DNA of 64,000 nt, taken from the NCBI GenBank assembly GCA_016928575.1, contig JAFGKK010000002.1, forward strand, positions 65,519 through 129,518, in the 5' to 3' direction. The translations under genes and the position numbers were made by a program. Origin of the DNA: Anaerolineales bacterium (GTDB lineage: Bacteria > Chloroflexota > Anaerolineae > Anaerolineales > RBG-16-64-43). The notes below the pieces were generated by a model that was not told the DNA's origin, did not search any database, and worked only from the letters and a program-made list of their open reading frames with translations. Positions 5,151 through 57,075 of this stretch are shown here, piece after piece (positions within the stretch are counted from its first letter, which is position 1; the number at the start of each line of letters is the position of its first letter).

Positions 5151-5164
5151 AAAAATCGGACGAT

Positions 5165-6011: not shown

Positions 6012-6015
6012 TTTT

Positions 6016-6051: not shown

Positions 6052-6195
6052 CATCAACGGGGAGGGGGCAATCAACATTCGAAACCCCAGAGTGTTTAGG
6101 AAGGGTGGGGGCTGGGCTGATGCTTGAAGATATCCGCCGATGGATTTCTGGATGCCCGCCAAATGCATGCGGGCATGACGATCATTTTTTCTTGC

Positions 6196-7818: not shown

Positions 7819-7932
7819 GGGTTGCTTTTTTCTGCCGCGAGAAATTATAACATCCGGGGATCCGTGGAGTGCACGGAATAGAAAAACGATTGTACGGATG
7901 CAACCGCTTTTCCTGGCCCCGCATCCCTTCCT

Positions 7933-7971
7933 CCCGTCACTGTCCCGCGCTCCACGCGGGACAGTGACGGG
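7933..7971. repeat. Perfect 17-bp inverted repeat (hairpin, 5-nt loop)
   Basis: cccgtcactgtcccgcg ctcca cgcgggacagtgacggg, located between the DUF4349-like gene and the glycosyltransferase gene. No U-tract on either strand. Confidence 0.85.
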
Positions 7972-8114
7972 ATTCATTCTCCCAGCCTCACCTCAGTGGA
8001 CGGAGGATTGCGATACTCCGAGTCTGTCGGCTGGGAGTGATGGGCTGGGAGAAGGTGCCCGGACCCGTCCCGGAGCGGAGCGACGGGAGGGCGGAGGCGG
8101 GGAGATATCCGCGG

Positions 8115-9080
8115 TTAGGATTGGATGACCTTCCGCTTGCGGGTGGCGATCTTGTACGCCATCCAGACGATCAGCGCCGGAACCGCGAAGGGCAGCCATA
8201 CCGCCAGGTAGATGAACGCGTCCACCAGGAACTGGCCGGCCTTCACCGCCATGCCGCTTGCGCGCTGGAAGGTCGCGCCGGGATCCCAGACGTAGGGAAC
8301 GGGCTCGGGCGTCGGGGTCGGGGTCGGGGCGGCGGGGAGGGAGGGATCGAATTGCACGGTGATCGTCGAATAGGCCGCCCGTCCGGCGAGGTAGCGCATC
8401 CGGCCCTGCACCTGTTCGATCTGTTCTTCGATCGCGGCCAGTTCGTTGTTGATCCGCAGCGATTCCTCAACCGTCTGGGCTTGATCCAGGAAGCCGCGGA
8501 TGCGGTCGCGGGTGGCCTCGAGATTGTGCAGGCGGGATTCGAGGTCGACGTATTCCTCGCTCACGTCCTGGCCGCCGGCGGTCTCATCGAGAACCCGAAC
8601 GCCGAGCGAGCGGATCCGCCGCAGGGCCGTCTCGAACATGTCGACCGGCACGCCGATGGTGTAGGTGGCGTATTTGAAATTCTCCCCGCCGGCGGGCTGA
8701 TACCAGATCCGGTTGCTGATGATGTAACCGCGGGTGTCGGAGACGATCTGGGTGAAGCGGTCGATGGCTTGGTCGGTGTCCGCCACTTCCAGGCGGACTT
8801 GGGCCTGCTTGATGATCAGCGGAGACCCTCCGGCCCCGCCCGCCGGAGCGCCGCTCAAATCCGCCGCGGGGGCCGCGCTCGCCGGCAGGCGGGGGAGTCC
8901 GGCCTCGTCGGCGGCTTTTTCCCCGACCTCGCCCGGTTGGACGGCCGCATCGCCGGAATCGGAGAAGGCCTGCAAACCCGGGGAGAGAGCGTTCCGCGCG
9001 GATTTATCGGCGGCGCAACCGGCAAGCAGCGCGGGGAGAAGAAGGATGAAAACGGCGGGAAGAACACGGTGCGCGGACAT
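8115..9080 (-). CDS. DUF4349-like lipoprotein
   Basis: Lipobox LLAGC at the N-terminus. The central region ..YTIGVPVDMFETALRRIRSLG..DVSEEYVDLESRLHNLEATRDRIRGFL..ELAAIEEQIEQVQGRMRYL matches my memory of the DUF4349 coiled-coil core. C-terminal TM helices are present. Confidence 0.65.
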   Translation of the reverse strand: MSAHRVLPAVFILLLPALLAGCAADKSARNALSPGLQAFSDSGDAAVQPGEVGEKAADEAGLPRLPASAAPAADLSGAPAGGAGGSPLIIKQAQVRLEVADTDQAIDRFTQIVSDTRGYIISNRIWYQPAGGENFKYATYTIGVPVDMFETALRRIRSLGVRVLDETAGGQDVSEEYVDLESRLHNLEATRDRIRGFLDQAQTVEESLRINNELAAIEEQIEQVQGRMRYLAGRAAYSTITVQFDPSLPAAPTPTPTPEPVPYVWDPGATFQRASGMAVKAGQFLVDAFIYLAVWLPFAVPALIVWMAYKIATRKRKVIQS

Positions 9081-40359: not shown

Positions 40360-40514
40360 GGATTTTTTTCGCGCAATTTTCCGGCCACCGAAGCGGAAAT
40401 GCGGTCCCGGCTACTCCGCTTCAGAACCAGAGTATTGGGATTGATCTATAATTGGGCATATTCCCTGCTTTTACAAGCGTGGCAAGCCCTAAGAAACGAC
40501 AACACCGGAGCGCT

Positions 40515-42497
40515 ATGGACCAACCACAACTGAACTGGATCGCCAACTTCATCTGGGGAATCGCCGACGACGTGCTCCGCGACCTCTACGTGCGCGGCAA
40601 GTACCGCGACGTGATCCTGCCGATGACGGTGCTGCGCCGCTTCGACGCGGTGCTCGAGCCTACCAAGCAGGCCGTGCTCGATATGAAGAAGAAGCTCGAT
40701 AAGGCGAAAATTACCAACCAGGATCCGGCGCTCCGCCAGGCGGCCGGGCAGGGTTTTTACAACACCTCCAAATTCACCCTGCGCGATTTAAAGGCCCGCG
40801 CCAGCCAGCAGCAGCTCCGGGCTGATTTCGAAGCCTACCTCGGAGGCTTCTCGCCCAACGTCCAGGAGATCCTCGAAAATTTCGAGTTCCGCAACCAAAT
40901 TCCAAGGCTCTCGAAGGCCGATGCGCTGGGCACGCTGATCGAGAAGTTCCTCTCGCCCGAAATCAACCTCAGCCCGAACCCGGTCCTGAATTCCGACGGC
41001 TCGGAAAAGACACCCGGCCTCGACAACCACGCCATTGGGACCGTATTTGAAGAGCTGGTGCGGCGCTTCAACGAGGAAAACAACGAGGAGGCCGGCGAGC
41101 ACTGGACCCCGCGGGACGCGGTGCGGCTGATGGCGAACCTGATTTTCCTGCCGATCGCCGACGAAATCGAATCCGGGACCTACCTGCTCTACGACGGCGC
41201 GCTCGGCACCGGCGGCATGCTGACCGTGGCGGAAGAGACGCTCAAGGAGCTGGCCGGGAAGCACGGCAAGCAGGTCGCCACGCACCTCTACGGACAGGAG
41301 ATCAACTCCGAGACCTACGCCATCTGCAAGGCGGACCTGCTGCTCAAGGGCGAGGGCGAGGCGGCCGACAACATCGTCGGCGGCCCCGAGTATTCCACGC
41401 TCTCCAACGACGCCTTCCCCTCGCGCGAATTCGACTTCATGCTCTCCAACCCGCCGTACGGAAAAAGCTGGAAAAGCGACCTGGAGCGGATGGGCGGCAA
41501 GGGCGGGATCAAGGACCCGCGCTTTGTCATCGAGCACGCGGGGGATCCGGAATACTCGCTGATAACCCGCTCGAGCGACGGCCAGATGCTGTTCCTGGCG
41601 AATATGCTTTCCAAGATGAAGCACGGCAACAAGCTCGGCAGCCGGATCGCCGAGGTGCACAACGGCTCATCGCTGTTCACCGGCGATGCCGGGCAGGGCG
41701 AGAGCAACATCCGCCGTTGGATCATCGAGAACGATTGGCTGGAGGCGATCGTCGCCCTGCCGCTTAATATGTTCTACAACACCGGCATCGCCACCTACAT
41801 CTGGGTGATTGGCAACCGCAAGCCCAAACACCGCGCCGGCAAGGTGCAGCTCATCGACGCCACGCAGTGGTACAAGCCGCTGCGTAAGAACCTGGGCAAG
41901 AAGAACTGCGAGCTCTCGCCTGAAGATATCGAGCGGATTTGCGACGCATTCCTGCGGTTCGAGGAAACTGAGCAATCGAAAATCTTCCCGAACGCCGCCT
42001 TCGGCTACTGGAAGGTGACGGTCGAACGCCCGCTCCGGTTGAAGGGCATCGACCCCGAAAAGGAATATTCGCCGAAGGAAATCAAGGCGCTCAAAGAAAG
42101 TTCCGAGCGCGCCGAGGATGCGCCGCCGGTCATCCGCAAGATTCATAGGAAGGGAACCGCCGCCGATCCGCTGCGCGGATTGTTCCCGGTGACCATCGGC
42201 GGAAAAGCGGCCGTCGTCGAATACGAGCCCGACCCGGACCTGCGCGACACCGAGCAGGTGCCGATGCTGGAAAAGGGCGGCGTCGAGCCCTTCATCCGCC
42301 GCGAAGTGCTTCCGCACGCCGCGGACGCCTGGATCCTCGCCGAGAGCGTCAAGACCGGATACGAGATCAGCTTCACGCGCTACTTCTACAAGCCGCAGCC
42401 GCTGCGCACGCTGGAGGAAATCCGCACCGACATCCTGGCGCTGGACAAGGAAACCAAGGGTCTCTTGGATGAGATCATCGGGGGCAATGGGGCATGA
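40515..42497 (+). CDS. hsdM: Type I restriction-modification system, DNA methyltransferase subunit M
   Basis: HsdM N-terminal domain NWIANFIWGIADDVLRDLYVRGKYRDVILPMTVLRRFD. AdoMet motif YDGALGTGGML. Catalytic NPPYG (MLSNPPYGKSW). The start is moved to ATG 40515. Confidence 0.92.
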   Translation: MDQPQLNWIANFIWGIADDVLRDLYVRGKYRDVILPMTVLRRFDAVLEPTKQAVLDMKKKLDKAKITNQDPALRQAAGQGFYNTSKFTLRDLKARASQQQLRADFEAYLGGFSPNVQEILENFEFRNQIPRLSKADALGTLIEKFLSPEINLSPNPVLNSDGSEKTPGLDNHAIGTVFEELVRRFNEENNEEAGEHWTPRDAVRLMANLIFLPIADEIESGTYLLYDGALGTGGMLTVAEETLKELAGKHGKQVATHLYGQEINSETYAICKADLLLKGEGEAADNIVGGPEYSTLSNDAFPSREFDFMLSNPPYGKSWKSDLERMGGKGGIKDPRFVIEHAGDPEYSLITRSSDGQMLFLANMLSKMKHGNKLGSRIAEVHNGSSLFTGDAGQGESNIRRWIIENDWLEAIVALPLNMFYNTGIATYIWVIGNRKPKHRAGKVQLIDATQWYKPLRKNLGKKNCELSPEDIERICDAFLRFEETEQSKIFPNAAFGYWKVTVERPLRLKGIDPEKEYSPKEIKALKESSERAEDAPPVIRKIHRKGTAADPLRGLFPVTIGGKAAVVEYEPDPDLRDTEQVPMLEKGGVEPFIRREVLPHAADAWILAESVKTGYEISFTRYFYKPQPLRTLEEIRTDILALDKETKGLLDEIIGGNGA

Positions 42498-43186
42498 AGG
42501 GCGATATACCGGAAAAACCTCGTCGTAAATCGCTCCGGCTGCCTAACTACGATTACGCGGCCGACGGCGCCTATTTTGTAACCATCTGCACGGCCGGCCG
42601 CCAATGCCTGTTTGGAGAGGCGGCAGGCGGCCGGGTCATCCTGAAAGACGGCGGTCGAGCAGCGCGGGCGTGTTGGATGGAAATTCCCGCCCATTACCCG
42701 GCGGTGCGATTGGATTCGTTCGTAGTGATGCCGAACCATATTCACGGGATCATCGTGATTGACAATTCGGCGGATATCGGGATGGCGCGGGACGCAGGGG
42801 CGAATGGTATTTCCGCAGGGGCGAACGGTATTTCCGCAGGGGCGAATAATTATTCGCCCCTACGGGGACCCGTGTTGCGGACCGCATCCCGTGGTGCGGA
42901 TGTCCGCGCGGCGGTGCGGTTCCGTTCCCCGTCCAGGACCGTGGGATCCATTGTGCGCGGGTTTAAAATCGGCGTGACGAAATGGTTCCGATCGAACACG
43001 GACGTCGCCAACGTCTGGCAACGCAACTATTACGAACACATCATCCGCGACGAGGCGTCGTTGCGGCGCATCCGCGAGTATATCGCCGCGAATCCTGCGC
43101 GGTGGGCGTACGATGCCGAAAACCAGGAACACGCGCGGGCCGACGGCATTCCGCTCCAGGTTCCGGGCGAGGGTAAACACGTATGA
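42494..43186 (+). CDS. IS200/IS605-like Y1 (HUH) transposase homologue, RAYT-like
   Basis: 230 aa. Motif PNYDYAADGAYFVTICT. HUH motif VVMPNHIHGIIVI. Catalytic-Tyr motif WQRNYYEHIIRDE..IREYIAANPARW. ATGA overlaps with hsdM (42494-42497) and hsdS (43183-43186). Confidence 0.8.
   Translation: MKGDIPEKPRRKSLRLPNYDYAADGAYFVTICTAGRQCLFGEAAGGRVILKDGGRAARACWMEIPAHYPAVRLDSFVVMPNHIHGIIVIDNSADIGMARDAGANGISAGANGISAGANNYSPLRGPVLRTASRGADVRAAVRFRSPSRTVGSIVRGFKIGVTKWFRSNTDVANVWQRNYYEHIIRDEASLRRIREYIAANPARWAYDAENQEHARADGIPLQVPGEGKHV
42794..42860. repeat. 2.5 copies of a 21-nt tandem repeat ending in a perfect 22-nt palindrome, inside the RAYT-like ORF
   Basis: gcaggggcgaatggtatttcc / gcaggggcgaacggtatttcc / gcaggggcgaataattattcgcccc. 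The palindrome ggggcgaataattattcgcccc lies at 42839-42860. The repeat encodes GANGISAGANGISAGANNYSP in frame. Confidence 0.9.
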
Positions 43187-44535
43187 TCGCCGAGCTAAAG
43201 GCTTATCCTAAAATGAAGGACTCCGGCGTGCCGTGGCTCGGGAAGATCCCGTACCATTGGAATATGAGGCGCGCGAAATGGTTATTTCGAAAAATGAATC
43301 GTATCGTTCGCGATTTTGATGAAGTGGTTACTTGTTTTCGCGATGGCTCAGTTACATTAAGGAAGAACAGAAGACTACGTGGATTTACCGAGTCCTTGAA
43401 GGAAATCGGATATCAAGGAATTCGGCAGGGTGACCTTGTAATACATGCAATGGATGCCTTTGCGGGTGCAATCGGGGTTGCTGATTCCGATGGAAAGGGC
43501 ACACCTGTTTATTCGGTATGTAAGCCTATGCAGGCGGCTAACTCGCACTACTTTGCATTTACAGTAAGAGAGATGGCTCGGAGCGCGTGGATTCAAGCCC
43601 TAGCAAAGGGAATACGGGAGAGATCAACGGATTTCCGTTTTGAGGAATTCTCTTCACAATTATTGCCTCTTCCGCCGAGCGGCGAACAAGCAGCCATCGT
43701 CCGCTTCCTCGACTACATGGACCGGCGGATACGGCGATACATTCGCGCCAAGCAGAAGCTGATCAAACTGCTGGAGGAGCAGAAGCAGGCCATCATCCAC
43801 CGCGCCGTCACCCGCGGGCTCGATCCAAACGTCCGCCTCAAGCCGTCCGGCGTGGCGTGGTTGGGGGAGGTGCCGGAGCACTGGGAAATTAGGCGATTAA
43901 AAAACCTATGCTCAATGAGGAGTGGTGAGGGCATTACTGCAATTTCAATCGAGCCGAAGGGTGATTATCCCGTATTCGGTGGTAACGGGATACGAGGTTA
44001 TACATCTCAATATACACATGATGGAAATTTTATTTTACTCGGGCGTCAAGGGGCATTATGTGGAAATGTTCATGTTGCACATGGCCGTTTTTGGGCTTCA
44101 GAGCATGCAGTAGTAACCACACTCCATGGAACCAACGATTTAAATTGGTTAGCTGCAGTATTACGAATAATGAATCTTAATCAATATTCAATAGCAGCGG
44201 CACAACCTGGGCTTGCCGTCGAAAGGATTCAGAACCTTACAATACCAATTCCTCCCAGACAAGAACAGGAGTTTATTGCTGAAAAAATCCAAGGATCAAC
44301 AACAAGTTTAGCGATTGCCATCGAAAAAATGCATCGCGAGATTTCAATTATCCGCGAATACCGCACCCGCCTTATCGCCGACGTGGTCACCGGCAAACTC
44401 GACGTGCGCGAGGCGGCGGCGCGCCTGCCGGATGAGATGGAGGAACCCGAGCCGATCGAAGAAGAATCGGAGAATGGCGCGGAAGAAGCGGAATCCGGTG
44501 AGATGGATGAGGCGCCGGAGGAGGCCGAATCATGA
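43183..44535 (+). CDS. hsdS: Type I restriction-modification system, specificity subunit S
   Basis: Two variable target-recognition regions alternate with two conserved helices: LPLPPSGEQAAIVRFLDYMDRRIRRYIRAKQKLIKLLEEQKQAIIHRAVTRG and IPIPPRQEQEFIAEKI..REISIIREYRTRLIADVVTGKLDVRE. Acidic C-terminal tail. Confidence 0.9.
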   Translation: MIAELKAYPKMKDSGVPWLGKIPYHWNMRRAKWLFRKMNRIVRDFDEVVTCFRDGSVTLRKNRRLRGFTESLKEIGYQGIRQGDLVIHAMDAFAGAIGVADSDGKGTPVYSVCKPMQAANSHYFAFTVREMARSAWIQALAKGIRERSTDFRFEEFSSQLLPLPPSGEQAAIVRFLDYMDRRIRRYIRAKQKLIKLLEEQKQAIIHRAVTRGLDPNVRLKPSGVAWLGEVPEHWEIRRLKNLCSMRSGEGITAISIEPKGDYPVFGGNGIRGYTSQYTHDGNFILLGRQGALCGNVHVAHGRFWASEHAVVTTLHGTNDLNWLAAVLRIMNLNQYSIAAAQPGLAVERIQNLTIPIPPRQEQEFIAEKIQGSTTSLAIAIEKMHREISIIREYRTRLIADVVTGKLDVREAAARLPDEMEEPEPIEEESENGAEEAESGEMDEAPEEAES

Positions 44536-45176
44536 CCGTTCCGGCGCAGCCCAAGATTTATCATATCGTTCATGTGGACCTGCTGGAATCCATCATTGCC
44601 GACGGACAAATCTGATGCGATCGGGAGAAACAAAGGCATCCGCTTACCGGAACTCCCATCGGGATGAGCGGGGTTAAGCGGCGGCGGCTTGAAGAGCTGC
44701 GTCTTTCCAGCCATCCCGACCTGTTCGTGGGGGATTGCGTGCCTTTCTACTTTTGACCGCGTTCGGTCATGCTGTACATGATCGCCCAGGGCAATCATCC
44801 GGAACTAACCTACCATGGCGGGCAGGATCCCATTATCCATCTCGAAGCCGACCTGCGTTCGGTAGTCGCCTGGGCCGATGCAAATGGCCGGCGTTGGGCT
44901 TTCACATTATCCAACGCGGGCGCCCGGTATTTTGAGGACCGGTGCGACCTTGACCGGCTTGGCGAAATAAATTGGGACGCGGTGGAAGCCACCGAATGGA
45001 GGTTATGCAAAGACGGAAAACAAGCCGAATTCCTTCTGGAACGCAGCTTTCCCTGGAGCTTGGTGGAACGGATCGGGGTACATTCGCAGGGAATCTACCA
45101 AAGGGTGGCGAATGCCCTTCCGAAAACGGGCCATCATCCGGGGGCGGAAATCCGCACGGAATGGTATTATCCATGA
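44532..45176 (+). pseudogene. darT: DarT (DUF4433) ssDNA ADP-ribosyltransferase toxin, single frame interrupted by two in-frame TGA codons
   Basis: One frame from ATG 44532 to TGA 45176 reads MTVPAQPKIYHIVHVDLLESIIADGQI*CDRE..FVGDCVPFYF*PRSVMLYMIAQG..WAFTLSNAGARYF..KQAEFLLERSFPW. The in-frame TGAs lie at 44613-44615 and 44754-44756. No frameshift. ATGA overlaps at both ends. Confidence 0.8.
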
Positions 45177-46252
45177 AGGAGACCGCGATGATCGAATATA
45201 AAAGCGGCGACATTTTGAACAGCAAGGCCGACGCGCTCGTCAACAGCGTCAATTGCGTCGGCGTGATGGGGCGCGGAATCGCGTTGCAGTTCAAAACCGC
45301 CTATCCGGACAACTTCAAAGCGTATGCCGCGGCCTGCAAACGGGAGGAAATTCAGCCCGGCCGCATGTTTGTCTTTGAAACCGGCCGGATAGACCCTCCG
45401 CGGTTCATTATCAATTTCCCCACCAAACGCCACTGGCGGGGTAAGAGCCGGATCGAAGATATCGAAGCCGGATTGACGGCGCTTGCGGGAGTCATTCGTT
45501 CCAAGGGTATTCATTCGATTGCGATCCCGCCCTTGGGGGCCGGTCTGGGCGGGCTGGATTGGGCCAGCGAGGTGCGGCCGCGCATCGAGCAAGCATTGAG
45601 TCCGCTGACCGATGTGACCGTTCTCATTTATAAGCCGGAAGGGGCGCCGGCGTCGGACGTCATGAAGCACCGCCGTGATGTGCCAAAAATGACTCCCGGC
45701 CGGGCCGCCTTGGTGGGATTGATGTCCCGCTATCTCGGCGGTCTGCTCGATCCTTTCATTACTCTTCTGGAATTGCATAAACTGATGTATTTTATGCAGG
45801 AGGCCGGAGAGCCTTTACAGCTTCGATATAAGCAAGGTCTCTTTGGCCCGTATGCGGAAAATTTACGCCACGTTTTGCATGAAATCGACGGGTACATGGT
45901 CGCCGGATACAACAACGGCGGCGACGCGCCCCATAAGCAATTAACTCTTGTGCCCGGGGCGGTGGCGGATGCCGAAACTATCCTGAATGAGCATGAGGAT
46001 ACACGCGTTCGTTTCGACCGGGTGGCTTCGCTGGTGGATGGTTTCGAATCGCCGTTTGGATTGGAATTGCTTTCCACCGTCCATTGGGTGATGAAGAACG
46101 AGCCGGTGCGTTCGCAGGAGGAGGTAGTCGATCGCACCTATTCGTGGAACGAGCGCAAGCGTCAGTTTACCCCCCGTCAAATAAAAATCGCAGCGGAGAC
46201 CCTCATGGAAAAGGAATGGGTGTCTCCCCTGCCTGGGCAAATCTCGCAGTGA
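45173..46252 (+). CDS. darG: DarG antitoxin (macrodomain DNA ADP-ribosyl glycohydrolase + C-terminal DarT-binding domain)
   Basis: Macrodomain IEYKSGDILNSKADALVNSVNCVGVMGRGIALQFK..INFPTKRHWRGKSR..IAIPPLGAGLGGLDW. ATGA overlap with darT at 45173-45176. Confidence 0.85.
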   Translation: MKETAMIEYKSGDILNSKADALVNSVNCVGVMGRGIALQFKTAYPDNFKAYAAACKREEIQPGRMFVFETGRIDPPRFIINFPTKRHWRGKSRIEDIEAGLTALAGVIRSKGIHSIAIPPLGAGLGGLDWASEVRPRIEQALSPLTDVTVLIYKPEGAPASDVMKHRRDVPKMTPGRAALVGLMSRYLGGLLDPFITLLELHKLMYFMQEAGEPLQLRYKQGLFGPYAENLRHVLHEIDGYMVAGYNNGGDAPHKQLTLVPGAVADAETILNEHEDTRVRFDRVASLVDGFESPFGLELLSTVHWVMKNEPVRSQEEVVDRTYSWNERKRQFTPRQIKIAAETLMEKEWVSPLPGQISQ

Positions 46253-49200
46253 GCGTCACCGACATCTCCGAACGCGGCCTCGAAAGTCTGATCTGCGCGG
46301 CGTTGACCGGCTCGCCGTGTCTGTCCGCCGAAGGCTCGGCGATGGCGGGCGAAACGGGAGACGCCCAAGCTGTCCATGAACGGCCGGCGGCCTACGGAGC
46401 CGGATGGATCTGCGGCGATCCGGAAGCCTACGACCGCGAATATTGCGTCGACCTCGCCCAATTATCGGCTTTCCTGAACGCGACCCAGCCGGAAACCGCC
46501 GACGCGCTCGAACTCGGCCGCGACGGCCCTGCGCGCCGCTCGTTCCTGGCGCGGTTGCAGGGCGAAATCAGCAAGCGCGGAACCATCGACGTCTTACGCA
46601 ACGGCATTAAGCACGGACCGCACCACATCGACCTGTTTTTCGGAACCCCCTCGCCGGGCAACGCCAAAGCTGCCGAGCGCTTTGCCGCGGACCGTTTCAG
46701 CGTCACCCGCCAGTTGCGCTACAGCCGGGATGAAACCCAGCATTCGCTCGACCTGTGCCTATTCATTAACGGTCTGCCCGTCGCCACCTTCGAACTGAAG
46801 AACAGCCTGACCAAGCAAACGGTCGAGGACGCCATCCAGCAGTACCAGCGCGACCGCGATCCGCGCGAGAGGCTCTTCGAGTTCGGGCGCTGCGTGGCGC
46901 ATTTCGCCGTGGACGACCATGAAGTGCGTTTCTGCACCCACCTCGCCGGCAAGAGCGCCTGGTTCCTGCCTTTCAACCGGGGCTGGAACGACGGCGCAGG
47001 CAATCCACCCAATCCGGACGGCTTGAAAACCGACTACCTCTGGAAGCGAATCCTCACCCGCGACGGCCTCACAGACATTCTCGAAAACTACGCGCAGATC
47101 ATCGAAACCAAGGACCCGAAGTCCGGTAAGAAAAAAGCGGTTCAAATCTGGCCGCGGTTCCATCAGCTCGACGTGGTGCGCAAACTGCTCGCCGACATCC
47201 GGGAAGCCGGCGCCGGCCGGCGCTACCTGGTCCATCACTCGGCGGGGAGCGGAAAATCCAACTCCATCGCCTGGCTGGCGCACCAGCTGATCGGCTTGAA
47301 AAAGAACGACGCCGCTGTCTTCGATTCGATCATCGTCGTCACCGACCGGATCCTCCTCGACCAGCAGATCCGCGACACGATCAAACAATTCGCCCAGGTC
47401 AGCGCCACGGTCGGCCATGCCGAGCGTTCGGGGGACCTGCGCAAGTTCATCGCCGAGGGAAAGAAGATCATCATCACCACGGTGCAGAAGTTCCCCTTTA
47501 TTCTCGATGAGATCGGCAGCGAGCATCGCGGGCGGAAATTCGCGATCATCATCGACGAGGCGCACTCCAGCCAGGGCGGCCGCACCTCGGCGGCGTTGTC
47601 GATGGCGCTCTCCGCGGCCGGAGCCGAGGACGAAGACGAAACGCTGGAAGACAAGATCAACCGGTTGATGGAATCCAAGAAGCTGCTGCCCAACGCCAGC
47701 TACTTCGCCTTCACGGCCACGCCCAAGAACAAGACGCTCGAGATTTTCGGCGAGCCCGAGCCGCAGCCGGACGGCAAGGTCAAGCACCGGCCGTTCCACA
47801 GCTATACGATGAAGCAAGCCATCCAGGAGGGTTTCATCCTGGATGTGCTTAAGTATTACACGCCGGTGGACAGCTACTACAAGCTGGTCAAGAAAATCGA
47901 GGGCGACCCCGAATTCGACACCAAACGGGCGAAGAAAAAACTGCGCCGCTACGTCGAAAGCCACGAACACGCCATCCGGCTCAAAGCCGAGATCATGGTC
48001 GACCACTTCCACGAGCAAGTTTTGGCGCTGAATAAAATCGGCGGCGAGGCGCGGGCGATGGTCGTGACGAGCGGCATCGAGCGCGCAATACAGTACTTCC
48101 ACGCCATCCGCGACTACCTGGCCGAGCGCAAGAGCCGTTACCGGGCGATTGTGGCGTTTTCGGGCGAGCACGAATACGGCGGGGTCAAGGTCACTGAGGC
48201 GTCTCTCAACGGTTTCCCTTCCAGCCAAATCGCCGACAAAATTCAGGAGGATCCGTATCGTTTTCTGATCTGCGCCGATAAATTCCAGACCGGATACGAC
48301 GAACCGCTTCTGCACACGATGTACGTGGATAAGGTGCTTTCCGGGATCAAGGCCGTGCAGACCCTTTCGCGCCTCAACCGGGCGCATCCGAAGAAGCACG
48401 ACGTGTTCGTGCTCGACTTCATGAACGACTCCGACACGATCCAGTTGGCGTTCTCCGACTACTACCGGACGACGATTCTGGCGGAGGAGACCGATCCCAA
48501 CAAACTGCACGACCTGAAGGCATCACTCGACGATTATCAGGTCTATGCACCCGTGCAGGTGGAAGAGCTCGTAGCGCTCTATCTGGGCGGCGCCGACCGC
48601 GACCGGCTCGACCCGATCCTCGACGCCAGCGTCGCGGAATACCGGGGGCGGCTGAACGAGGACGGGCAGGTCGATTTCAAGGGAAAGGCCAAAGCCTTCC
48701 TGCGGACATACGGATTCCTATCCTCGATCCTGCCGTATACCAATGCCGATTGGGAAAAGCTTTCAATCTTCTTAACATTCCTGGTTCCCAAATTACCGGC
48801 GCCGGTGGAAGAAGACCTCGCGCGTGGGATCCTCGAAGCGATCGACATGGACAGTTATCGAGTGGAAAAACAGGCGGCCATCCGGATCCAGCTTCCCGAC
48901 GCTGACGCGGAGATTGGCCCGGTCCCCGCGCTCGGCGGCGGCCACCTGCCCGAACCCGAACTCGACCGGCTTTCCAACATCATCAAAGCCTTCAATGACC
49001 AATTCGGGAACATCCCCTGGTCCGATGCCGACCGGGTACACAAGCTGATCACCGAGGACATCCCCAGCCGGGTCGCTGCGGACAAGGCGTACCAAAATGC
49101 GCGACTGAATTCCGACAGACAAAACGCCCGGATCGAGCACGACAAGGCGCTCGCCCGGGTGATGACGACGGTGCTGAGGGACGACACCGAGTTGTTCAAA

Positions 49201-49281
49201 CAGTTCATGGATAATGAGGGATTCCGGCGCTGGCTGACGGATACGGTGTTCGGGCTGACGTATGAATCCCCAAGACCATAG
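46249..49281 (+). CDS. hsdR: Type I restriction enzyme, endonuclease/translocase subunit R
   Basis: N-terminal PD-(D/E)xK region DLCLFINGLPVATFELKN. Helicase motif I HHSAGSGKSNSIAWLA and motif II IIIDEAHSSQ. Later motifs are present. GTG 46249 is proposed as the start because it forms a GTGA overlap with the darG stop. ATG 46216 is the alternative. Confidence 0.9.
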   Translation: MSVTDISERGLESLICAALTGSPCLSAEGSAMAGETGDAQAVHERPAAYGAGWICGDPEAYDREYCVDLAQLSAFLNATQPETADALELGRDGPARRSFLARLQGEISKRGTIDVLRNGIKHGPHHIDLFFGTPSPGNAKAAERFAADRFSVTRQLRYSRDETQHSLDLCLFINGLPVATFELKNSLTKQTVEDAIQQYQRDRDPRERLFEFGRCVAHFAVDDHEVRFCTHLAGKSAWFLPFNRGWNDGAGNPPNPDGLKTDYLWKRILTRDGLTDILENYAQIIETKDPKSGKKKAVQIWPRFHQLDVVRKLLADIREAGAGRRYLVHHSAGSGKSNSIAWLAHQLIGLKKNDAAVFDSIIVVTDRILLDQQIRDTIKQFAQVSATVGHAERSGDLRKFIAEGKKIIITTVQKFPFILDEIGSEHRGRKFAIIIDEAHSSQGGRTSAALSMALSAAGAEDEDETLEDKINRLMESKKLLPNASYFAFTATPKNKTLEIFGEPEPQPDGKVKHRPFHSYTMKQAIQEGFILDVLKYYTPVDSYYKLVKKIEGDPEFDTKRAKKKLRRYVESHEHAIRLKAEIMVDHFHEQVLALNKIGGEARAMVVTSGIERAIQYFHAIRDYLAERKSRYRAIVAFSGEHEYGGVKVTEASLNGFPSSQIADKIQEDPYRFLICADKFQTGYDEPLLHTMYVDKVLSGIKAVQTLSRLNRAHPKKHDVFVLDFMNDSDTIQLAFSDYYRTTILAEETDPNKLHDLKASLDDYQVYAPVQVEELVALYLGGADRDRLDPILDASVAEYRGRLNEDGQVDFKGKAKAFLRTYGFLSSILPYTNADWEKLSIFLTFLVPKLPAPVEEDLARGILEAIDMDSYRVEKQAAIRIQLPDADAEIGPVPALGGGHLPEPELDRLSNIIKAFNDQFGNIPWSDADRVHKLITEDIPSRVAADKAYQNARLNSDRQNARIEHDKALARVMTTVLRDDTELFKQFMDNEGFRRWLTDTVFGLTYESPRP

Positions 49282-49525: not shown

Positions 49526-50380
49526 GTGTCCGAAAAAGAATATATTCTATTCTGCGACGAGTCCGATAAGCGCGGCAAATACTATTCCAATTTCTATGGC
49601 GGAGTCCTGGTAGGTGCATCATAATATCAACGCGTTTCAAGGCGCCTTGGAGAAGTTAAAACCGGTCAAAATCTGTTTGGCGAGATCAAATGGGAGAAAG
49701 TCACCGATCGGTATCTTGAAAAATACAAACGGCTTATCCATGCGTTCTTCGAAGAGATCTCCAGGGGGAATCTCCGTGTTCGGGTAATGTTCCACCAGAA
49801 TGCGAATCGGCCGCGGGCTTTGGCGCGCATGCAAGTGGAATTCGAATACTTTCTACTCTATTACCAGTTCATCAAACATGCCTTCGGGCTGGAATTCGCG
49901 CCGGGCCCAATCCGGATGCGCCTGTATTTTGATACCTTCCCCGACACCGAGGAAAAAACCGCGCAGTTCAAGGGCTATCTGCTGGGCCTGACAAAAACAA
50001 AAAGATGGCGCACCGTCGACATCCAGCGCGAGGATATCACGGAAGTGCGCACCCGCAACCATGTCCTCCTGCAATGCCTGGATATCGTATTTGGTTCCAT
50101 GTCATTCCGTTTAAACGATAAGCACAAGGAAAAACTGGCTGATTCGAGCCGGCGGAGAAAACGCACGATCGCAAAGGAACAACTTTACCGCTTTATCTTG
50201 GCGGAAATTGGGAAAATACATCCGAGGTTCAACATTGGCATTAGCACCAGCTTGCATGGAGATGCCAACCGACAGTGGAGTGATCCCTATCTGCATTGGA
50301 ATTTCGTTCCCGCGGATGGAGTGTTCGAATCTACGCTTACCAAACCGCGGAGAAAGGGGAAAAAAGAAAACCCCATCTGA
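49526..50380 (+). pseudogene. DUF3800-family protein interrupted by one in-frame TAA
   Basis: From GTG 49526 the frame reads SEKEYILFCDESDKRGKYYSNFYGGVLVGAS*YQRV..GEIKWEKV..RVRVMFHQN.. and continues into the 197-aa ORF. The N-terminal (Y/F)CDES motif is the DUF3800 hallmark. The TAA lies at 49622-49624. Confidence 0.6.
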
Positions 50381-52074: not shown

Positions 52075-53175
52075 TTGGAGTTCCCGTTGAAACCCATGCA
52101 AACGATCCTGTCCCTGACCCATGGTTGGAATCTACCGCGAGACGAAAAAGACGCGGAAAGGCTCATCTCCGCCTATTATGAACTATCCACGGCCGAAGGT
52201 AAGAAACTGGCGCAAAAGGTTCTCCATTCCAAAGATGAAAAAACCTGTGAAATAATACTCCTCAACCTTTCCCTGTTGGTTCCCGGTTCTCTGGAAGGCC
52301 ATTATCCTGAAATCATCGAACGCAGGTTTTTCGATTGGTATGAGTATTTCCGGTATGCGGAACCTGATGTCCGGGAGATGATCATAAAAAGGATCCGGTC
52401 CGAAAAAGAACCGAAGATGAAACGGGGGTTGATTTATGCCTTGGCTTGGATCGGGGATATTCCTGCGCAAAAGGAACTGGCCGCCATGGCCGATCAGAAT
52501 GTGGATTGGGGGAGTCCGGAGGCGGAAAAACTCGCGCCCACGATTTCGCACCTCATTCCCATGGCCGGTTGGGAATTGACGGGAAAGGGCGAGCGCAGGG
52601 ATCTCTATCTGCCGACGGCGTACGACTTGGACTTGATCGATCGTGAACCGACCGAGATTACTCGGGGATCCTGTCCGTGGTGCGGAACGGAGTTGAAACC
52701 GACATTCGAATTTGATCTTTCGGACGAAAGAACCAGGGAAATCGGACTTGACGGCGGGAAGATAATTCTCGGCATGTGCACGCGCTGCGTGCAGTACGCA
52801 GCGATCTTCACCGAATTGGATGCACAAGGCGGCTTCCGGTGGAGCCCGCACAATGAGAAACCCTCCAACCTTCCGGAGGCCTTTCCCGATCCGGATGAAA
52901 TCGGAGCGTTCTGGTCGATGAACCGGATCCGGATCGGCAAACAAAGACGTTCCCCGTACGAGAGAGTGGCCTGGTTACCGACCGGAATGGAGCGATTCGG
53001 AGGCTTTCCGGGTTGGGTGCAATGGCCGGAATACCCGGTTTGCCCATCCTGCAAGCGCAGGATGGTTTGCTTAGCGCATGTGGATTATGCTTCGACCGGG
53101 CAAGCCTCCGGTGTGGCGTATGGCTTTCTCTGCAAGGAATGCCTGATGGGGGCGGTGAATATGCAGTGCGATTAG
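52075..53175 (+). CDS. Hypothetical protein with HEAT-like N-terminus and Cys-rich (zinc-ribbon, DUF1963-like) C-terminus
   Basis: CPWCG..CTRC and CPSCKRRM..FLCKECL cysteine pairs. The terminal GGFPGWVQWPEYPVCPSCKRRMVCLAHVD..GVAYGFLCKEC resembles the DUF1963/YwqG end. It starts at TTG 52075 or ATG 52096, directly after the NERD stop. Confidence 0.45.
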   Translation: MEFPLKPMQTILSLTHGWNLPRDEKDAERLISAYYELSTAEGKKLAQKVLHSKDEKTCEIILLNLSLLVPGSLEGHYPEIIERRFFDWYEYFRYAEPDVREMIIKRIRSEKEPKMKRGLIYALAWIGDIPAQKELAAMADQNVDWGSPEAEKLAPTISHLIPMAGWELTGKGERRDLYLPTAYDLDLIDREPTEITRGSCPWCGTELKPTFEFDLSDERTREIGLDGGKIILGMCTRCVQYAAIFTELDAQGGFRWSPHNEKPSNLPEAFPDPDEIGAFWSMNRIRIGKQRRSPYERVAWLPTGMERFGGFPGWVQWPEYPVCPSCKRRMVCLAHVDYASTGQASGVAYGFLCKECLMGAVNMQCD

Positions 53176-53325
53176 CAGGCGGGAATTAGATTGCGTGATA
53201 GTAATACTGATAGAAATGGGCTTTACCTACAGACGAAAAACATCGTTTCAGGAAAATAATTATATAATGATATTCTGTGAGGACTATCAGCCTGAAAAAC
53301 CAGTAGAGAATAAGGGATAAATTAA

Positions 53326-54015
53326 ATGGATTCATTCAATATGTATCTTGCACTCATGAAAGAGCGCCCCGAGCTTTTTAAGAATACCGGAGAGAAGAAT
53401 GAGATTAAAATCATCCACAATCCGGAACGAATTCTTGCTGAGCAAGAGAAAATTAAGGCCGAGTTGCGTTCTAAAGGATTACCCGAGTATTGGATAGAAA
53501 TTGGTGTTTTATCTGAGGATGAATGGTTCTGGACAGTACGCGATATGGTTGAGTTTCCGAATGGTTTCGTTTGGGGGTATATCCGCCAAATAAACCGAAA
53601 AGTACAAGATGGGGGATTCGGAGTCATATTGTTATGTGCAAGAGAAGGGCAATTATTAATGATTAAAAAATTCCGGCATGAAGAACGGGGTTGGAGTTGG
53701 GAATTTCCTCGTGGCTTTGGCGATCCTAAACTAACGGCAAATGAAAACGCTCAGAAGGAATTACTAGAGGAAACAGGGCTTGTAGAAAAAAAGTTGGAAA
53801 TGCTTGCGGAAATAAAGGAAGGCAAAGGTGGATTGTCTGTATTCCTTGCAAGGATAGAATCCGATCAGAAGATTGTCAAGGATGACGTAGAAGGTATTGG
53901 TGAATATATATGGGTGTCAGAAAAGGATATTGAAAAATTAATCCTGGAAGGAAAGATAAAAGATTGGTTTTCATTGTGGGCTTTTATTTTAGCAAGAAGT
54001 AGAAAGATATTCTAG
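53326..54015 (+). CDS. NUDIX hydrolase (ADP-ribose pyrophosphatase-like)
   Basis: Nudix-box-like GFGDPKLTANENAQKELLEETGL. The KELLEETG core is present. L and K replace the first Glu and the Arg of the canonical GX5EX7REUXEEXGU. Very AT-rich. Confidence 0.75.
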   Translation: MDSFNMYLALMKERPELFKNTGEKNEIKIIHNPERILAEQEKIKAELRSKGLPEYWIEIGVLSEDEWFWTVRDMVEFPNGFVWGYIRQINRKVQDGGFGVILLCAREGQLLMIKKFRHEERGWSWEFPRGFGDPKLTANENAQKELLEETGLVEKKLEMLAEIKEGKGGLSVFLARIESDQKIVKDDVEGIGEYIWVSEKDIEKLILEGKIKDWFSLWAFILARSRKIF

Positions 54016-54029
54016 AAGGGATCAATGCT

Positions 54030-55361
54030 ATGCCGGGAAAAAAGAATGCTGATAATACATTTGTTGAAGCGCTTGACACCGTATTTCAGATTAGAAATCC
54101 TGACAGGGATGCTCGGCGGGTAAGTCGTTTATTGACCGGCAGTATCCTCTATTCAAGAGGATTGGCTTTTTCAGATACTATGCTGATCGATAACCTTGGA
54201 TTACGTCGACTATTTAGGAAGAACTCAGCCTTTAGGGAGTTAATATCACAAATCGGTGTTGCGGGAATTCGCAATGGTTCAGACAACCTGCTAAGCGTTG
54301 TTGAAAAGCAGATAAAGTCGGGGATGATATTTTCCTCCTTCCCAGAACAGTTGCGAAATAAAGTAAAAAATAACAAGTTAGATGAAGTAACAATTACCCC
54401 GGACGAAGTATTTTCTAAAGAGCCTGAATATTACCGATATATTGAAGCCCTAGATAATGCCCTAAATAGGACAAATAATAAATTTACAGCTTCTTGGGAA
54501 GTATATGAAACAGTGCTTAAGCGATTAATTGATAAAGAGAAATTACAACTAGCTGATAAGGGTGCTATTTATATATTGGACGGATTAATAGATAGAACAC
54601 GGATCTATGCGGCTAGTAAAGGTAGAAAACGTATAGATCGATCGGATTATTACAAAGTAGTCAGGCAAGGAATTGGATTGGAATATCCAGGCCCCGATAA
54701 TTCTCAACAAATAGTAATAGAATTCTTTGTGGATCGGGCATACCGCGAGAACTTCTGGATGAATAACAACGTATCCATTGTTTCCTTTACATCGAAAAAG
54801 GGGGCCGAATTATTTAAATCGGCGTTCCCTGAGCGCGAAAAGATGCTTAGGTATATGGATTTAAATAATAGTAAAATAATAAAATTACCTTCTATAGAGA
54901 TCGATACAAAGGCGATAATCTCACTAGATCAATTGGATTTTGATTTTCATATAGGCCTTCGAGAAGAAAATATTTCTCTAGATTATCTAGATACTATATA
55001 TAAAGCAGAAGATGACGGGGAAGCAAAAACTGTATTGCGTGAATATTGGTTATATATTGATAGCAAGATAGCCGAATATTACAAAAAGAAGAAAAAACCA
55101 CAATTACTTAAGAATGGAAAAATGGCGATAGAAATTGTTGCCATTACAGCAGAAGGGCTCAATCTCTATTCTGCATTACGTGCATATCAACAACTGTCGC
55201 CAAACTTAACTATATTACTTAGCGCCGCTGGAGCTGTATTAATAGTGGAATTAGTCAAAACACTATATGGCAAGATCGAAGAAACAGAAAGGGATAAACA
55301 AACAAAAACAGAACAAGACTTAAAAAAATATTTCAGGGATGTAATTATCGAGGATGAATAA
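54030..55361 (+). CDS. Hypothetical 443-aa protein with C-terminal hydrophobic segment
   Basis: Long uninterrupted AT-rich ORF starting 14 nt after the NUDIX gene. I recognise no domain. A hydrophobic stretch LTILLSAAGAVLIVELV lies near the C-terminus, followed by a charged tail. Confidence 0.6.
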   Translation: MPGKKNADNTFVEALDTVFQIRNPDRDARRVSRLLTGSILYSRGLAFSDTMLIDNLGLRRLFRKNSAFRELISQIGVAGIRNGSDNLLSVVEKQIKSGMIFSSFPEQLRNKVKNNKLDEVTITPDEVFSKEPEYYRYIEALDNALNRTNNKFTASWEVYETVLKRLIDKEKLQLADKGAIYILDGLIDRTRIYAASKGRKRIDRSDYYKVVRQGIGLEYPGPDNSQQIVIEFFVDRAYRENFWMNNNVSIVSFTSKKGAELFKSAFPEREKMLRYMDLNNSKIIKLPSIEIDTKAIISLDQLDFDFHIGLREENISLDYLDTIYKAEDDGEAKTVLREYWLYIDSKIAEYYKKKKKPQLLKNGKMAIEIVAITAEGLNLYSALRAYQQLSPNLTILLSAAGAVLIVELVKTLYGKIEETERDKQTKTEQDLKKYFRDVIIEDE

Positions 55362-55437
55362 ATGTGACAATAAAAAAATAATTATTTCTCATCAGCCCCC
55401 CCCGTCACTGCCCTTTCCTCACCCCCGACCCCAACAA

Positions 55438-55481
55438 CCCCTTTCCCCTCTCCTGACATATGTCAGGAGAGGGGAAAGGGG
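55438..55481. terminator. Perfect 21-bp inverted repeat between convergent genes (bidirectional terminator candidate)
   Basis: cccctttcccctctcctgaca ta tgtcaggagaggggaaagggg. An outer imperfect extension pairs cctcaccc with ggggtgagg. No clear U-tract. Confidence 0.5.
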
Positions 55482-55557
55482 ACAGGGGATAGGGGTGAGG
55501 ATGGAAAAGAGCAGGATTTCATTTCAATATTACTGAGGCTGAGCAGATGCAAATAAT

Positions 55558-55818
55558 CTACGAATAATGATTAATTATATCGCGGGGCGTATAATATTCC
55601 TTCTTAATACGCTTAACCAACTCATGGAGCATCTCCGAAAACTTCTCGTTGGGGACGTTTTCAAGGACGGTTGCGGAACTCTCCTGCACATCACCCTTCG
55701 AAAACAGCCCCGCAATCAGCTTCCCAACCTCCTCCGGCGACAGCATGGCATAGGCATCATCCGTCGTCCGGATGTCGGCGCGGATCATGTTCTCCGGCAA
55801 CGCCTTATCGTCCGCCAT
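55558..55818 (-). CDS. Hypothetical small protein
   Basis: 86-aa ORF with protein-like composition (MADDKALPENMIRADIRTTDDAYAMLSPEEVGKLIAGLF..). No recognisable domain. Confidence 0.35.
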   Translation of the reverse strand: MADDKALPENMIRADIRTTDDAYAMLSPEEVGKLIAGLFSKGDVQESSATVLENVPNEKFSEMLHELVKRIKKEYYTPRDIINHYS

Positions 55819-56247
55819 CGTCCCGGCCCGCAGGAGGCCGAAGACGGCGCGGCCGTGGCGGACCTTACGCGTGAACCGGGGCGCCGGAGCGACGCGGCGA
55901 TCGCGGGAGCAGGGCGGCTTCCGGCGCCGGATCGGATTCGCGACCGCCGCGCCATGGTAAAATGAAGGCGGAATTCATCGCCGCAATAATATCCGTATCC
56001 GTCCAGCCCATACGTTTCCGCAACCTGCCGCCGTCAAAGAAGACGGCCTTCTTTCCCCTCCTCCGGGCTTCCGCCTTTTTTCTTTGTTCCGCAAGCCGGC
56101 GGCGGGGGAAAAGCTTCCGAACGGCGGGCCCGGGCGCTTTTCCGGGAAGAAAGGTCCAGTTGAGCCGAGGGAAGCGGCGGGATGCCTGGCGGAGGCGGCT
56201 GGACCGGAATCCTGACCCGGCGCGACGGATGAAAGGAGAAAAGGACC

Positions 56248-56664
56248 ATGAGCGGGAAACCGATCTGCATCACCGAAAAGGACTTGGGGCGGTTGAAAAA
56301 ATTAATCCTGGATTCCGACACCACCGAATACCGCAAGAGCCCGTACCTGGAGCGGCTCAAAGAGGAGCTCGAGCGGGCGGCTGTCGTCCCGGCCGGGGAG
56401 ATACCCAACAGCGTGGTGACCATGAACTCGACGGTCTGCCTGGAAGACCTGGATACCGGGGAGGAGGAAACCTACACCTTGGTCTTCCCGGACCAGGCCG
56501 ATCTCAAGCTGGGGAAGGTATCGATCCTGGCTCCGATCGGCACCGCCATGCTGGGATACGAGACGGGGGATGTGTTCGAGTGGGAGGTCCCTTCAGGCAA
56601 GCGCAAACTGCGCGTGAAAAAGGTCCTCTATCAGCCGGAAGCCGCGGGGGATTTCCATTTGTAG
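56248..56664 (+). CDS. rnk: Nucleoside diphosphate kinase regulator (GreA/GreB C-terminal-domain family)
   Basis: 138 aa. ICITEKDLGRLKKLI.. followed by VTMNSTVCLEDLDTGEEETYTLVFPDQADLKLGKVSILAPIGTAMLGYETGDVFEW is the typical Rnk layout. Confidence 0.8.
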   Translation: MSGKPICITEKDLGRLKKLILDSDTTEYRKSPYLERLKEELERAAVVPAGEIPNSVVTMNSTVCLEDLDTGEEETYTLVFPDQADLKLGKVSILAPIGTAMLGYETGDVFEWEVPSGKRKLRVKKVLYQPEAAGDFHL

Positions 56665-56970
56665 TACCCGTCGCCGTGGCTGTTAACCGAAGGCTCTCTG
56701 GAAGGATCATGCATTCCGAAGGACCGCCGGCGGTTTTCGGCCTGAGTACCCCCCGGCGCGATCAAGACGCTTCCTTCCCGAGTCGGAGGGCGCGTTTTCG
56801 CCTTGTTTCCCCGGAGGCGGAATCCTCCGTTAATTCCTCGGCGGGATCGGAAGGGCTTGCGCGATATCCGCCGGTCTGTGTGTAGCGACGGCGCTGACGG
56901 ACTCGGGCGCGGCGGACCTCGGACGGATGGATTTCTTTGCCCCGCGGCGTACATACTCCCGCCCCCGTTG

Positions 56971-57075
56971 TTTATAATATCCTCCGCGCGGTTCAAGATC
57001 ATCCTTCACGCCGTTTGGCTGTCCGAAACCGCCCGTTGCGGCGCGCGCCCGGCGCTGTGGGCGGAGTGCGGCCGG
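56971..57075 (+). pseudogene. Start-less copy of the 5' end of the downstream SNF2 helicase gene (direct repeat copy 1)
   Basis: Manual alignment to 59790-59896: 70 of 79 ungapped identities (56997-57075 vs 59818-59896, offset 2821), plus 18 of 20 just upstream. It encodes (K)IILHAVWLSETARCGARPALWAECGR, against MIILHAVWLPETARCGARLALWAETGR. The ATG is replaced by AAG. Confidence 0.85.

Follow-up and report, generated by a model that had tools for sequence, protein, structure and literature searches.

Within a 64,000-nucleotide stretch of contig JAFGKK010000002.1 (hereafter, the window), which belongs to an Anaerolineales metagenome-assembled genome (MAG), we analyzed a two-gene cassette formed by a NUDIX hydrolase gene and a downstream gene for which the label X was coined in this analysis; the product of X is deposited as 'hypothetical protein JW929_00530'. 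The two open reading frames (ORFs) are co-directional with an intergenic gap of 14 nt, and the coordinates given for both by an initial annotation of this DNA were reproduced (Table 1). The AT-rich composition noted there was likewise recovered by a windowed check: in 400-nt windows, the GC content is 0.34-0.41 over positions 53200-55400, as compared with 0.55-0.62 in the upstream and 0.60-0.72 in the downstream flank, and the low-GC block extends from approximately 53180 to approximately 55560. A promoter is presumed to sit in the AT-rich leader at the upstream edge of the block; the promoter scan of this leader did not exceed the expectation from shuffled sequences, and a convincing site was not found.

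Table 1. Features of the NUDIX-X cassette and of its surroundings in the window (aa, amino acids; R-M, restriction-modification).
Feature	Position	Strand	Size or remark
HsdM	40452-42497	+	type I R-M
230-aa ORF between hsdM and hsdS	42494-43186	+	overlaps both by 4 bp
HsdS	43183-44535	+	type I R-M
DarT-like ORF	44769-45176	+	135 aa, C-terminal part only; ...KQAEFLLERSFPWSLVERIGV...
DarG	up to 46252, true start probably near 45188	+	PADLOC 4.7e-136; between hsdS and hsdR
HsdR	46084-49281	+	type I R-M
197-aa ORF	49787-50380		no Pfam match at E<=1e-3
366-aa Cys-rich ORF	52075-53175	+	several CxxC pairs; starts where the NERD gene stops
AT-rich leader	53176-53325	+	upstream edge of the low-GC block; GC falls from 0.57 to 0.38
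NUDIX gene, type A	53326-54015	+	229 aa
Family-specific N-terminal extension of NUDIX	residues 1 to ~65		strongly conserved within the family
ADP-sugar-pyrophosphatase-like NUDIX domain	residues ~72-224
Nudix box region of NUDIX	53713-53781 (residues 130-152)	+	GFGDPKLTANENAQKELLEETGL
Gene X	54030-55361	+	443 aa
Hydrophobic segment of X	55206-55262 (residues 393-411)	+	Kyte-Doolittle 19-aa mean 1.89
GC-rich hairpin	55416-55501	.	86 nt; perfect 44-bp palindrome core at 55438-55481

The NUDIX protein matches the Pfam family PF00293 over residues 97-204 (E 1.6e-12; score 48 bits, cut-off 21.1). The KELLEETG catalytic core ascribed to it by the initial annotation is indeed present: G130 and the E145-x-x-E148-E149-x-G-L core of the Nudix box GX5EX7REUXEEXGU are conserved without exception, with E145, E148, and E149 invariant in 20 of 20 family members and retained in both the A and B paralogs described below. 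The canonical arginine of the box is Lys in the window protein and T, N, M, or R in its relatives, and the glutamate position of Gx5E is occupied by Leu in the window protein. No copy has lost the ExxEE residues that bind the metal, which makes activity of the enzyme probable despite the non-canonical box. The N-terminal extension carries the conserved residues Y7, P15, F18, N20 ... R72-D73-x-V-E-F-P (alignment A2, headed by the window protein).

The structures closest to the family profile in the PDB are those of NudF (5c7q, E 4.5e-12) and NudE (1vhg, E 7e-10), followed by ADP-ribose pyrophosphatases (ADPRases) and human NUDT5 (residues 72-224), which places the protein in the ADP-ribose/ADP-sugar clade. 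It is no ortholog of a named enzyme, because the NCBIfam equivalog scores lie far below their cut-offs; none of these models was reached, the NudE model NF008736 scoring 28.4 bits where 169 are required. The N-terminal beta-strands, the Nudix fold (residues 72-224), and the ExxEE core are shared with NudF, NudE, Thermus Ndx4/ADPRase, and NUDT5. A conserved proline approximately 15-16 residues past the Nudix box is a signature of ADPRases; in the family profile alignment this proline is missing, the 'HP' of NudF being aligned with 'KE' of KEGKGG. The family of the window protein differs from the named ADPRases in the conserved ~65-residue N-terminal extension, the variable box arginine, the Leu in Gx5E, and the absence of the post-box proline, and, further, its genes are accessory, island-borne, and often present as two paralogs flanking X. 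The family numbers at least 184 homologs, and the best 120 of these 184 are 52-67% identical; among these 120, the homologs with named sources come mostly from Anaerolineae/Chloroflexota MAGs. We conclude that these NUDIX proteins form a new subfamily that stands apart within a well-known superfamily; in this subfamily, the window protein groups with the type-A copies (378 bits, as compared with approximately 200 for type B).

The partner protein X gave no match in Pfam, PADLOC, or NCBIfam, in line with the initial annotation, which recognized in it only a C-terminal hydrophobic stretch; the latter was located at residues 393-411, a region of low AlphaFold2 (AF2) confidence, and is possibly a membrane anchor or one half of a hairpin. 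An exhaustive HMMER search of 1.84 billion representative proteins yielded only 12 relatives of X (25-32% identity), and a metagenome scan with a tighter X alignment added three loci; a word-indexed search of 5.8 billion proteins returned essentially X alone, its candidate list being filled by low-complexity words. Conserved motifs of the family are SFxESLDTVxQ, LSALFSxxIILSDTQFVDNxGIRxLF, FSSFP, RSxFY, and VKRFFVDxxYNxNFW, and the conserved residues include R204, D235, Y238, N239, and N241. An AF2 model of the kind recommended earlier for this protein was built from a 14-sequence alignment (predicted local distance difference test [pLDDT] 75.4, predicted template modeling score 0.76; from the single sequence, the pLDDT was 33). 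It predicts a globular body with alpha/beta and helical parts (residues ~10-370), followed by the hydrophobic C-terminal tail. The fold search with this model retrieved nothing in the PDB or BFVD, and the sequence profile search of the PDB produced no match for X.

The NUDIX family was searched for in one genome per species (185,579 species), which resulted in 90 confirmed stretches in 74 loci; genes in the related loci (numbered with the prefix L) were called by the longest-ORF rule, and many of these loci are MAG or metagenome contigs. The NUDIX family was found next to X in 9 of the 10 X-family loci with room for a neighbor (pairs in L005, L007, L008, L009, L081, L087, L091, and L094, with L092 as the sole exception), and an X-superfamily gene adjoins NUDIX in 46 of 81 NUDIX-family loci from species genomes and metagenomes. 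The possibility that the pair is conserved nowhere else, raised in the initial annotation, is contradicted by these counts, which support a conserved module and not a chance juxtaposition. In the pairs of the X family, NUDIX usually lies downstream of X, often with a 4-bp start/stop overlap; relative to the window proteins, the identity is 25-33% for X and 39-46% for NUDIX.

The NUDIX-adjacent proteins form three clusters, namely c0 with 38 members, including the 490- and 513-aa partners of the closest relatives of the window NUDIX; c3, which is the family of the window X (4.5e-142 against the c3 profile); and c4, which includes a protein of the cultured Levilinea saccharolytica KIBI-1 (L014, where a complete A-X-B cassette spans 5953-8777). 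Profile comparison by hhalign connects c3 with c4 (probability 96.7%, E 3.4e-10) and with c0 (95.3%, E 2.1e-8); BLASTP did not relate the window X to either the 490- or the 513-aa partner, so the kinship is visible at the profile level only. The Pfam search with 41 superfamily members at E <= 0.05 returned only scattered chance matches, and the members had no matches in PADLOC or NCBIfam. By these comparisons, X can be assigned to an undescribed superfamily of fast-evolving NUDIX-adjacent proteins of approximately 450-550 aa. One or two hydrophobic segments occupy the equivalent C-terminal position in many c3 and c0 members. ORFs downstream of NUDIX in Streptomyces were also considered as relatives of X and proved unrelated on comparison; the large middle genes of L013 and L018 (536 and 529 aa) are unrelated to X as well.

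Three layouts of the module were observed. NUDIX-A - X - NUDIX-B is found in approximately 21 loci of the Anaerolineae type, with the catalytic core intact in both paralogs, and X - NUDIX in approximately 23 loci from many phyla. NUDIX-A - X without NUDIX-B occurs in the window, L001, L004, L036 (contig ends), and L080; in L001 and L004, an ORF of ~200 aa and an epimerase gene follow. No further NUDIX was detected in the window, and no remnant of NUDIX-B, which follows X in most Anaerolineae copies, was found in 55300-57000. The number of NUDIX copies is variable, with two tandem type-B genes in L013 (9853-11242) and, in L043 and L058, a pair of NUDIX genes that has a gene of the reverse strand between them. 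Genes for NAD-dependent epimerases/dehydratases (GDP_Man_Dehyd, RmlD_sub_bind) lie in or beside the cassette in L001 (8306-9905), L004 (3881-5551), L013, L018, L020, and L093 (2267-4178), often together with an ORF of ~170-300 aa of no assigned family, and a variant of the module linked to sugar nucleotides may thus exist. In L002 (5444-5917) and L004 (974-1447), the two loci with the NUDIX proteins closest to that of the window, a gene for a HIT-family hydrolase is located directly 5' of NUDIX-A; this gene is absent from the window.

The two genes of the window cassette have different affinities. The NUDIX protein is 54-66% identical to type-A copies paired with a c0 or c4 X and only 39-46% identical to the c3-paired NUDIX proteins, from which the cassette looks like a recombinant of an Anaerolineae type-A NUDIX with an X of the rare c3 family. 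Within c3 loci, X diverges faster than its partner, with 33-44% identity for X versus 48-67% for NUDIX over the same pairs of loci.

In other genomes, the module is found repeatedly beside defense genes. Among 123 flank proteins from 40-odd loci, which matched 193 Pfam families overall, type I restriction endonucleases and methyltransferases were the only clearly recurrent families (five matches to the type I endonuclease, three to four to further REase_I models, four to the type I methyltransferase, and two to TIR_2). HsdR is encoded immediately 5' of NUDIX-A in L001, L018, L020, L024, L031, and L052, and HsdM downstream of the cassette in L001, L020, L031, and L038; with HsdR before and HsdM after it, the cassette is therefore inserted inside an R-M operon. 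Taken as an operational definition of defense linkage, a recurrent defense neighborhood was observed, and the window itself contains R-M, DarG, NERD, and PD-T4-6-like kinase-STAND genes. An N-terminal TIR_2 domain is fused to X in L042 and L047 (Ruminococcus and Clostridia MAGs), and a TIR domain combined with an X-like protein is found in L002 (E-values across the fused proteins, 4e-24, 1.9e-13, and 1.1e-13); L045 shows a weak L6-TIR match. The X part of L042, whose TIR-X-NUDIX cassette spans 3875-6654, is related to c0 with an hhalign probability of 99.9%. In the Anaerolineales locus L002, where the TIR protein accompanies a NUDIX 67% identical to that of the window, the region past the TIR domain weakly resembles the N-terminus of the window X (BLASTP E 0.002; hhalign 29.5%). 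The TIR-fused proteins of L042, L045, and L047 have no C-terminal hydrophobic segments, and X proteins with neither TIR nor a hydrophobic segment were found in L016, L017, L031, L035, L036, L038, L048, and L059. In Streptomyces, Kitasatospora, and Embleya, the NUDIX family, including its N-terminal extension (query residues 3-229), follows genes for CATRA-N/C and a CHAT caspase; this linkage was seen in actinobacterial relatives only (L085 is one such Streptomyces locus), and the matches on plasmids are all of this form and reside on giant linear plasmids of Streptomyces. The defense-linked company suggested at the outset for the window cassette is thus seen as R-M nesting, TIR fusions to X, and CATRA-CHAT linkage of the NUDIX family.

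In 32 of 37 loci, the cassette has a lower GC content than the DNA on either side; the median difference is -0.09, and the window stands at the extreme (-0.23). Its taxonomic spread is patchy and covers at least eight phyla and one archaeon (Chloroflexota, Bacillota, Actinomycetota, Pseudomonadota, Planctomycetota, Cloacimonadota, Acidobacteriota, Caldithrix, and a Methanoperedenaceae archaeon). Both observations support the horizontal acquisition proposed in the initial annotation, and the module appears to be accessory and mobile. In Candidatus Methanoperedenaceae archaeon GB37 (L081, 4744-6294), a c3-type X split over three frames is followed by a truncated NUDIX; this decaying copy implies cross-domain transfer. 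The NUDIX family had no matches in 50,697 phage genomes, and 2.9 million IMG/VR contigs gave a single distant NUDIX match without X.

When two immune readings are taken together, it is likely that the module is a defense system. The reading toward which we tentatively lean, at somewhat less than an even chance, is that X is the sensor or regulator and NUDIX the shared catalytic output of a mobile anti-phage module. X would sense infection and regulate, often with a hydrophobic hairpin at its C-terminus that tethers it to the membrane or inserts it there; in some lineages, X would bring its own N-terminal TIR NADase. NUDIX, once released or activated, would hydrolyze a nucleoside diphosphate-linked (NDP-X) metabolite of the NAD+/ADP-ribose (ADPR) family, either depleting it or destroying the ADPR left by NADases, with cell arrest or phage starvation as the outcome. 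In the TIR-X fusions, the two activities would act in series, converting NAD+ to ADPR and nicotinamide and then ADPR to AMP and ribose-5-phosphate. Removal of ADPR would deny it to phages, which recycle ADPR into NAD+ through NARP1 (10.1101/2024.02.11.579819, PMC13464706). NUDIX is taken as the output because it is common to two unrelated upstream machineries (X or CATRA-CHAT) and because it is far better conserved than X, which appears to evolve like a specificity component. A more specific version, possible though doubtful, describes NUDIX-X(-NUDIX) as an anti-phage system in which NUDIX is the constant effector under X and provides a second layer in type I R-M operons. This layer would make NAD+ depletion irreversible, through destruction of the ADPR recycled by phages in NARP1-type pathways, or remove the NDP-sugar donors with which phages hypermodify their DNA against restriction, and caspase-based CATRA systems would have recruited the effector in an independent event. 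The window copy, lacking NUDIX-B, may be incomplete or inactive, and the distribution data alone do not separate a sensor X from an effector X, the sensor role fitting the distribution at least as well as that of a membrane effector. The latter role, proposed in the initial annotation, stands as one of two live readings; the hydrophobic hairpin is frequent in X, though not universal.

The reversed assignment of roles, the main rival and less likely than the first reading, makes X the killer, through its membrane-active hairpin or fused TIR NADase, and NUDIX the brake on an activating or toxic nucleotide; X would be unleashed upon infection or when a phage inhibits NUDIX, and the two flanking NUDIX genes would guarantee the brake in Anaerolineae. 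It draws on the effector-like terminal modules of X, namely TIR_2 (L002, L042, L047) or the hydrophobic hairpin, the latter not in TIR fusions, on the near-constant presence of NUDIX beside X, yet not of X beside NUDIX, and on the tight coupling of X-to-NUDIX junctions by short overlaps. In plants, NUDT7 restrains TIR signaling. A precedent for a Nudix enzyme downstream of a defense enzyme is provided by type III CRISPR, where CAAD makes inosine triphosphate (ITP) and Nudix hydrolyzes it (PMC13276650). On the other hand, the TIR fusions apart, the cassette contains no signal-generating enzyme for NUDIX to oppose, the X proteins of the eight loci listed above have neither TIR nor a hydrophobic segment, and the conserved X residues suggest neither an enzyme nor a pore; moreover, the same NUDIX family stands in the place of the effector in CATRA-CHAT systems (PMC8195603). 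Outside immunity, the cassette might be a nucleotide-sugar or NAD-housekeeping module, with a NUDIX like Gmm/WcaH, which adjoins genes for GDP-sugar dehydratases/epimerases in polysaccharide clusters, and with X as a membrane-associated protein of envelope metabolism; proximity to R-M genes would then reflect shared variable islands. The epimerase genes in or beside the cassette, the ADP-sugar clade of the NUDIX, and the membrane-like segments frequent in X agree with such a role, which we nevertheless judge improbable: epimerases occur in a minority of the loci, no recurrent genes for glycosyltransferases or polysaccharide export were found among the flank proteins, and neither the position between hsdR and hsdM of one operon nor the TIR fusions and the CATRA-CHAT linkage fit it. 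Least probable is an anti-defense module of a mobile element, considered in the initial annotation as well, whose NUDIX would destroy cyclic ADP-ribose isomers and ADPR derivatives of host TIR/Thoeris-like systems. Phage Nudix, Macro, and NADAR proteins have been proposed to degrade ADPR-derived immune signals (PMC9503650), and the composition of the cassette is foreign; the near-complete absence of the family from the phage and IMG/VR collections disfavors this alternative, as does the location of the cassette in chromosomal R-M operons, tied to TIR/CHAT and not to phage or conjugation genes.

Several known systems resemble the proposed sensor-output module in part. CATRA systems are characterized in PMC8195603, which cites Burroughs & Aravind 2020, as ternary conflict systems that depend on a caspase and vary in their effector, and the same NUDIX family holds the third (effector) position of CATRA-CHAT in the three actinobacterial genera named above. 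The window, by contrast, contains no CATRA or CHAT gene (the neighbors of the cassette are NERD, the 366-aa ORF, and an 86-aa ORF), and NUDIX is paired with X. In the related vWA-MoxR systems, Nudix has also been noted as one of the domains at the effector position (PMC7159879). TIR NADase systems, such as Thoeris and TIR-effector fusions, are similar where TIR_2-X adjoins the ADPR-clade NUDIX, a combination in which NAD+ would be split by TIR and the ADP-ribose-type products by NUDIX. The difference lies in the domain fused to TIR, which is the X body and not SAVED, STING, or SLOG; with respect to Thoeris, the window proteins and their relatives had no PADLOC match, no ThsA (SIR2/SLOG or Macro) was found, and the window X has no TIR. 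In the type III CRISPR CAAD/Cad1 systems, as here, a Nudix of a defense operon processes a nucleotide made or targeted by its partner (PMC13276650), but that partner is a CARF-adenosine deaminase driven by cyclic oligoadenylate, whereas the present cassette has no CRISPR, CARF, or deaminase. The PADLOC candidate PDC-S07, a single-gene NUDIX, was matched weakly by the window protein (E 1.6e-4, 19 bits) and by NUDIX-B of L014 (3.8e-5); these scores reflect generic NUDIX similarity, the 135-position model having neither the N-terminal extension nor X. Of the traits of a type II toxin-antitoxin pair, the cassette shows the tight coupling of its genes.

With respect to genomic position, the closest parallel is PrrC/EcoprrI, in which an abortive-infection gene is nested in a type Ic R-M operon. 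The NUDIX-X module is similarly placed between hsd genes, in the order HsdR-NUDIX-A-X-(NUDIX-B)-HsdM in L001, L020, and L031, whereas in L018 and L024 further genes intervene. This placement hints at a reserve layer of defense that may be tied to restriction. The module is not homologous to PrrC, and the window cassette lies 4 kb downstream of hsdR, outside the R-M operon. No description of the module was found in the open-access literature, and it is also outside PADLOC v2, Pfam, and NCBIfam. Since tests for membership in Thoeris, CATRA (for this window), and the named ADPRases were negative, the module is classed as a separate variant of the nucleotide-centered, island-borne conflict modules of two or three genes, with a logic like that of NAD+/ADPR-centered systems. 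On present evidence, X appears to have no relatives of known structure or function.

If the module does protect against phages, NUDIX would act as a core enzyme of a bacterial immune system, where Nudix proteins have so far figured mainly as accessory components or phage counter-measures, and the X superfamily, which has no family assignment or detectable fold relative, would gain its first functional handle. The hsdR-hsdM nesting, the interchangeable partners (X, TIR-X, and CATRA-CHAT), and the paired NUDIX genes lead to testable predictions on effector-sensor wiring and bear on whether hosts counter phage NAD+ salvage by eliminating ADP-ribose. A cultured carrier, L. saccharolytica KIBI-1, makes such experiments feasible.

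The downstream GC boundary of the window cassette coincides with a hairpin located between X and the convergent minus-strand 86-aa ORF. The perfect inverted repeat reported in the initial annotation was recovered here, with arms of 22 nt instead of 21 and at 77 nt past the end of X, where the annotation had closed the cassette; the arms are joined without a spacer and extended by imperfect outer arms (55416-32 and 55485-501). As RNA, the hairpin has a folding energy of -80.6 kcal/mol (z = -8.2 versus shuffles). It is probably a strong bidirectional transcription stop between X and the 86-aa ORF; it has no U-tract, was not called by intrinsic terminator prediction, and matched Rfam families only below threshold, as a generic hairpin. 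The boundary of an inserted segment is an equally possible reading of it; a terminator, an insertion scar, and a recombination site are all candidates for its origin. No second copy was found within the window, the hairpin was absent from 86 related loci, and direct repeats of the kind left by an insertion were not found on the two sides of the cassette.

Upstream of the cassette, the genes follow in the order HsdM - 230-aa ORF - HsdS - DarT fragment - DarG - HsdR - 197-aa ORF - NERD - 366-aa ORF. Of the defense island described here in the initial annotation, the type I R-M system, NERD, and DarG were found; an intact DarT and a DUF3800 gene were not, the 197-aa ORF being without a Pfam match. 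The DarT toxin gene may be truncated or frameshifted next to an intact gene for the antitoxin DarG. The 230-aa ORF, which has a weak match to IS200-type Y1 transposases (E 5e-4) and none in PADLOC, is a second insertion within the R-M operon of the window. The 366-aa ORF had no match in Pfam, PADLOC, or NCBIfam and does not stand beside the NUDIX-X cassette in other loci. A gene combining NERD with a Zn-ribbon (L091, 2535-3260, minus strand) lies near a c3-type X-NUDIX pair, much as a NERD gene precedes the cassette in the window; this may be a coincidence. Farther upstream of the R-M operon, the minus strand of 29703-38474 encodes a fusion of a Ser/Thr kinase with an nSTAND2 NTPase (PADLOC PD-T4-6, 5e-88) beside two giant BNR/Sortilin-repeat proteins, one of them with an N-terminal ATPase and TPR repeats, and this region may represent another conflict system. 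The first GC-rich gene past the cassette (56248-56664, plus strand) encodes a GreA/GreB-C plus Rnk-N protein of the type regulating nucleoside diphosphate kinase and is probably part of the ordinary host backbone.

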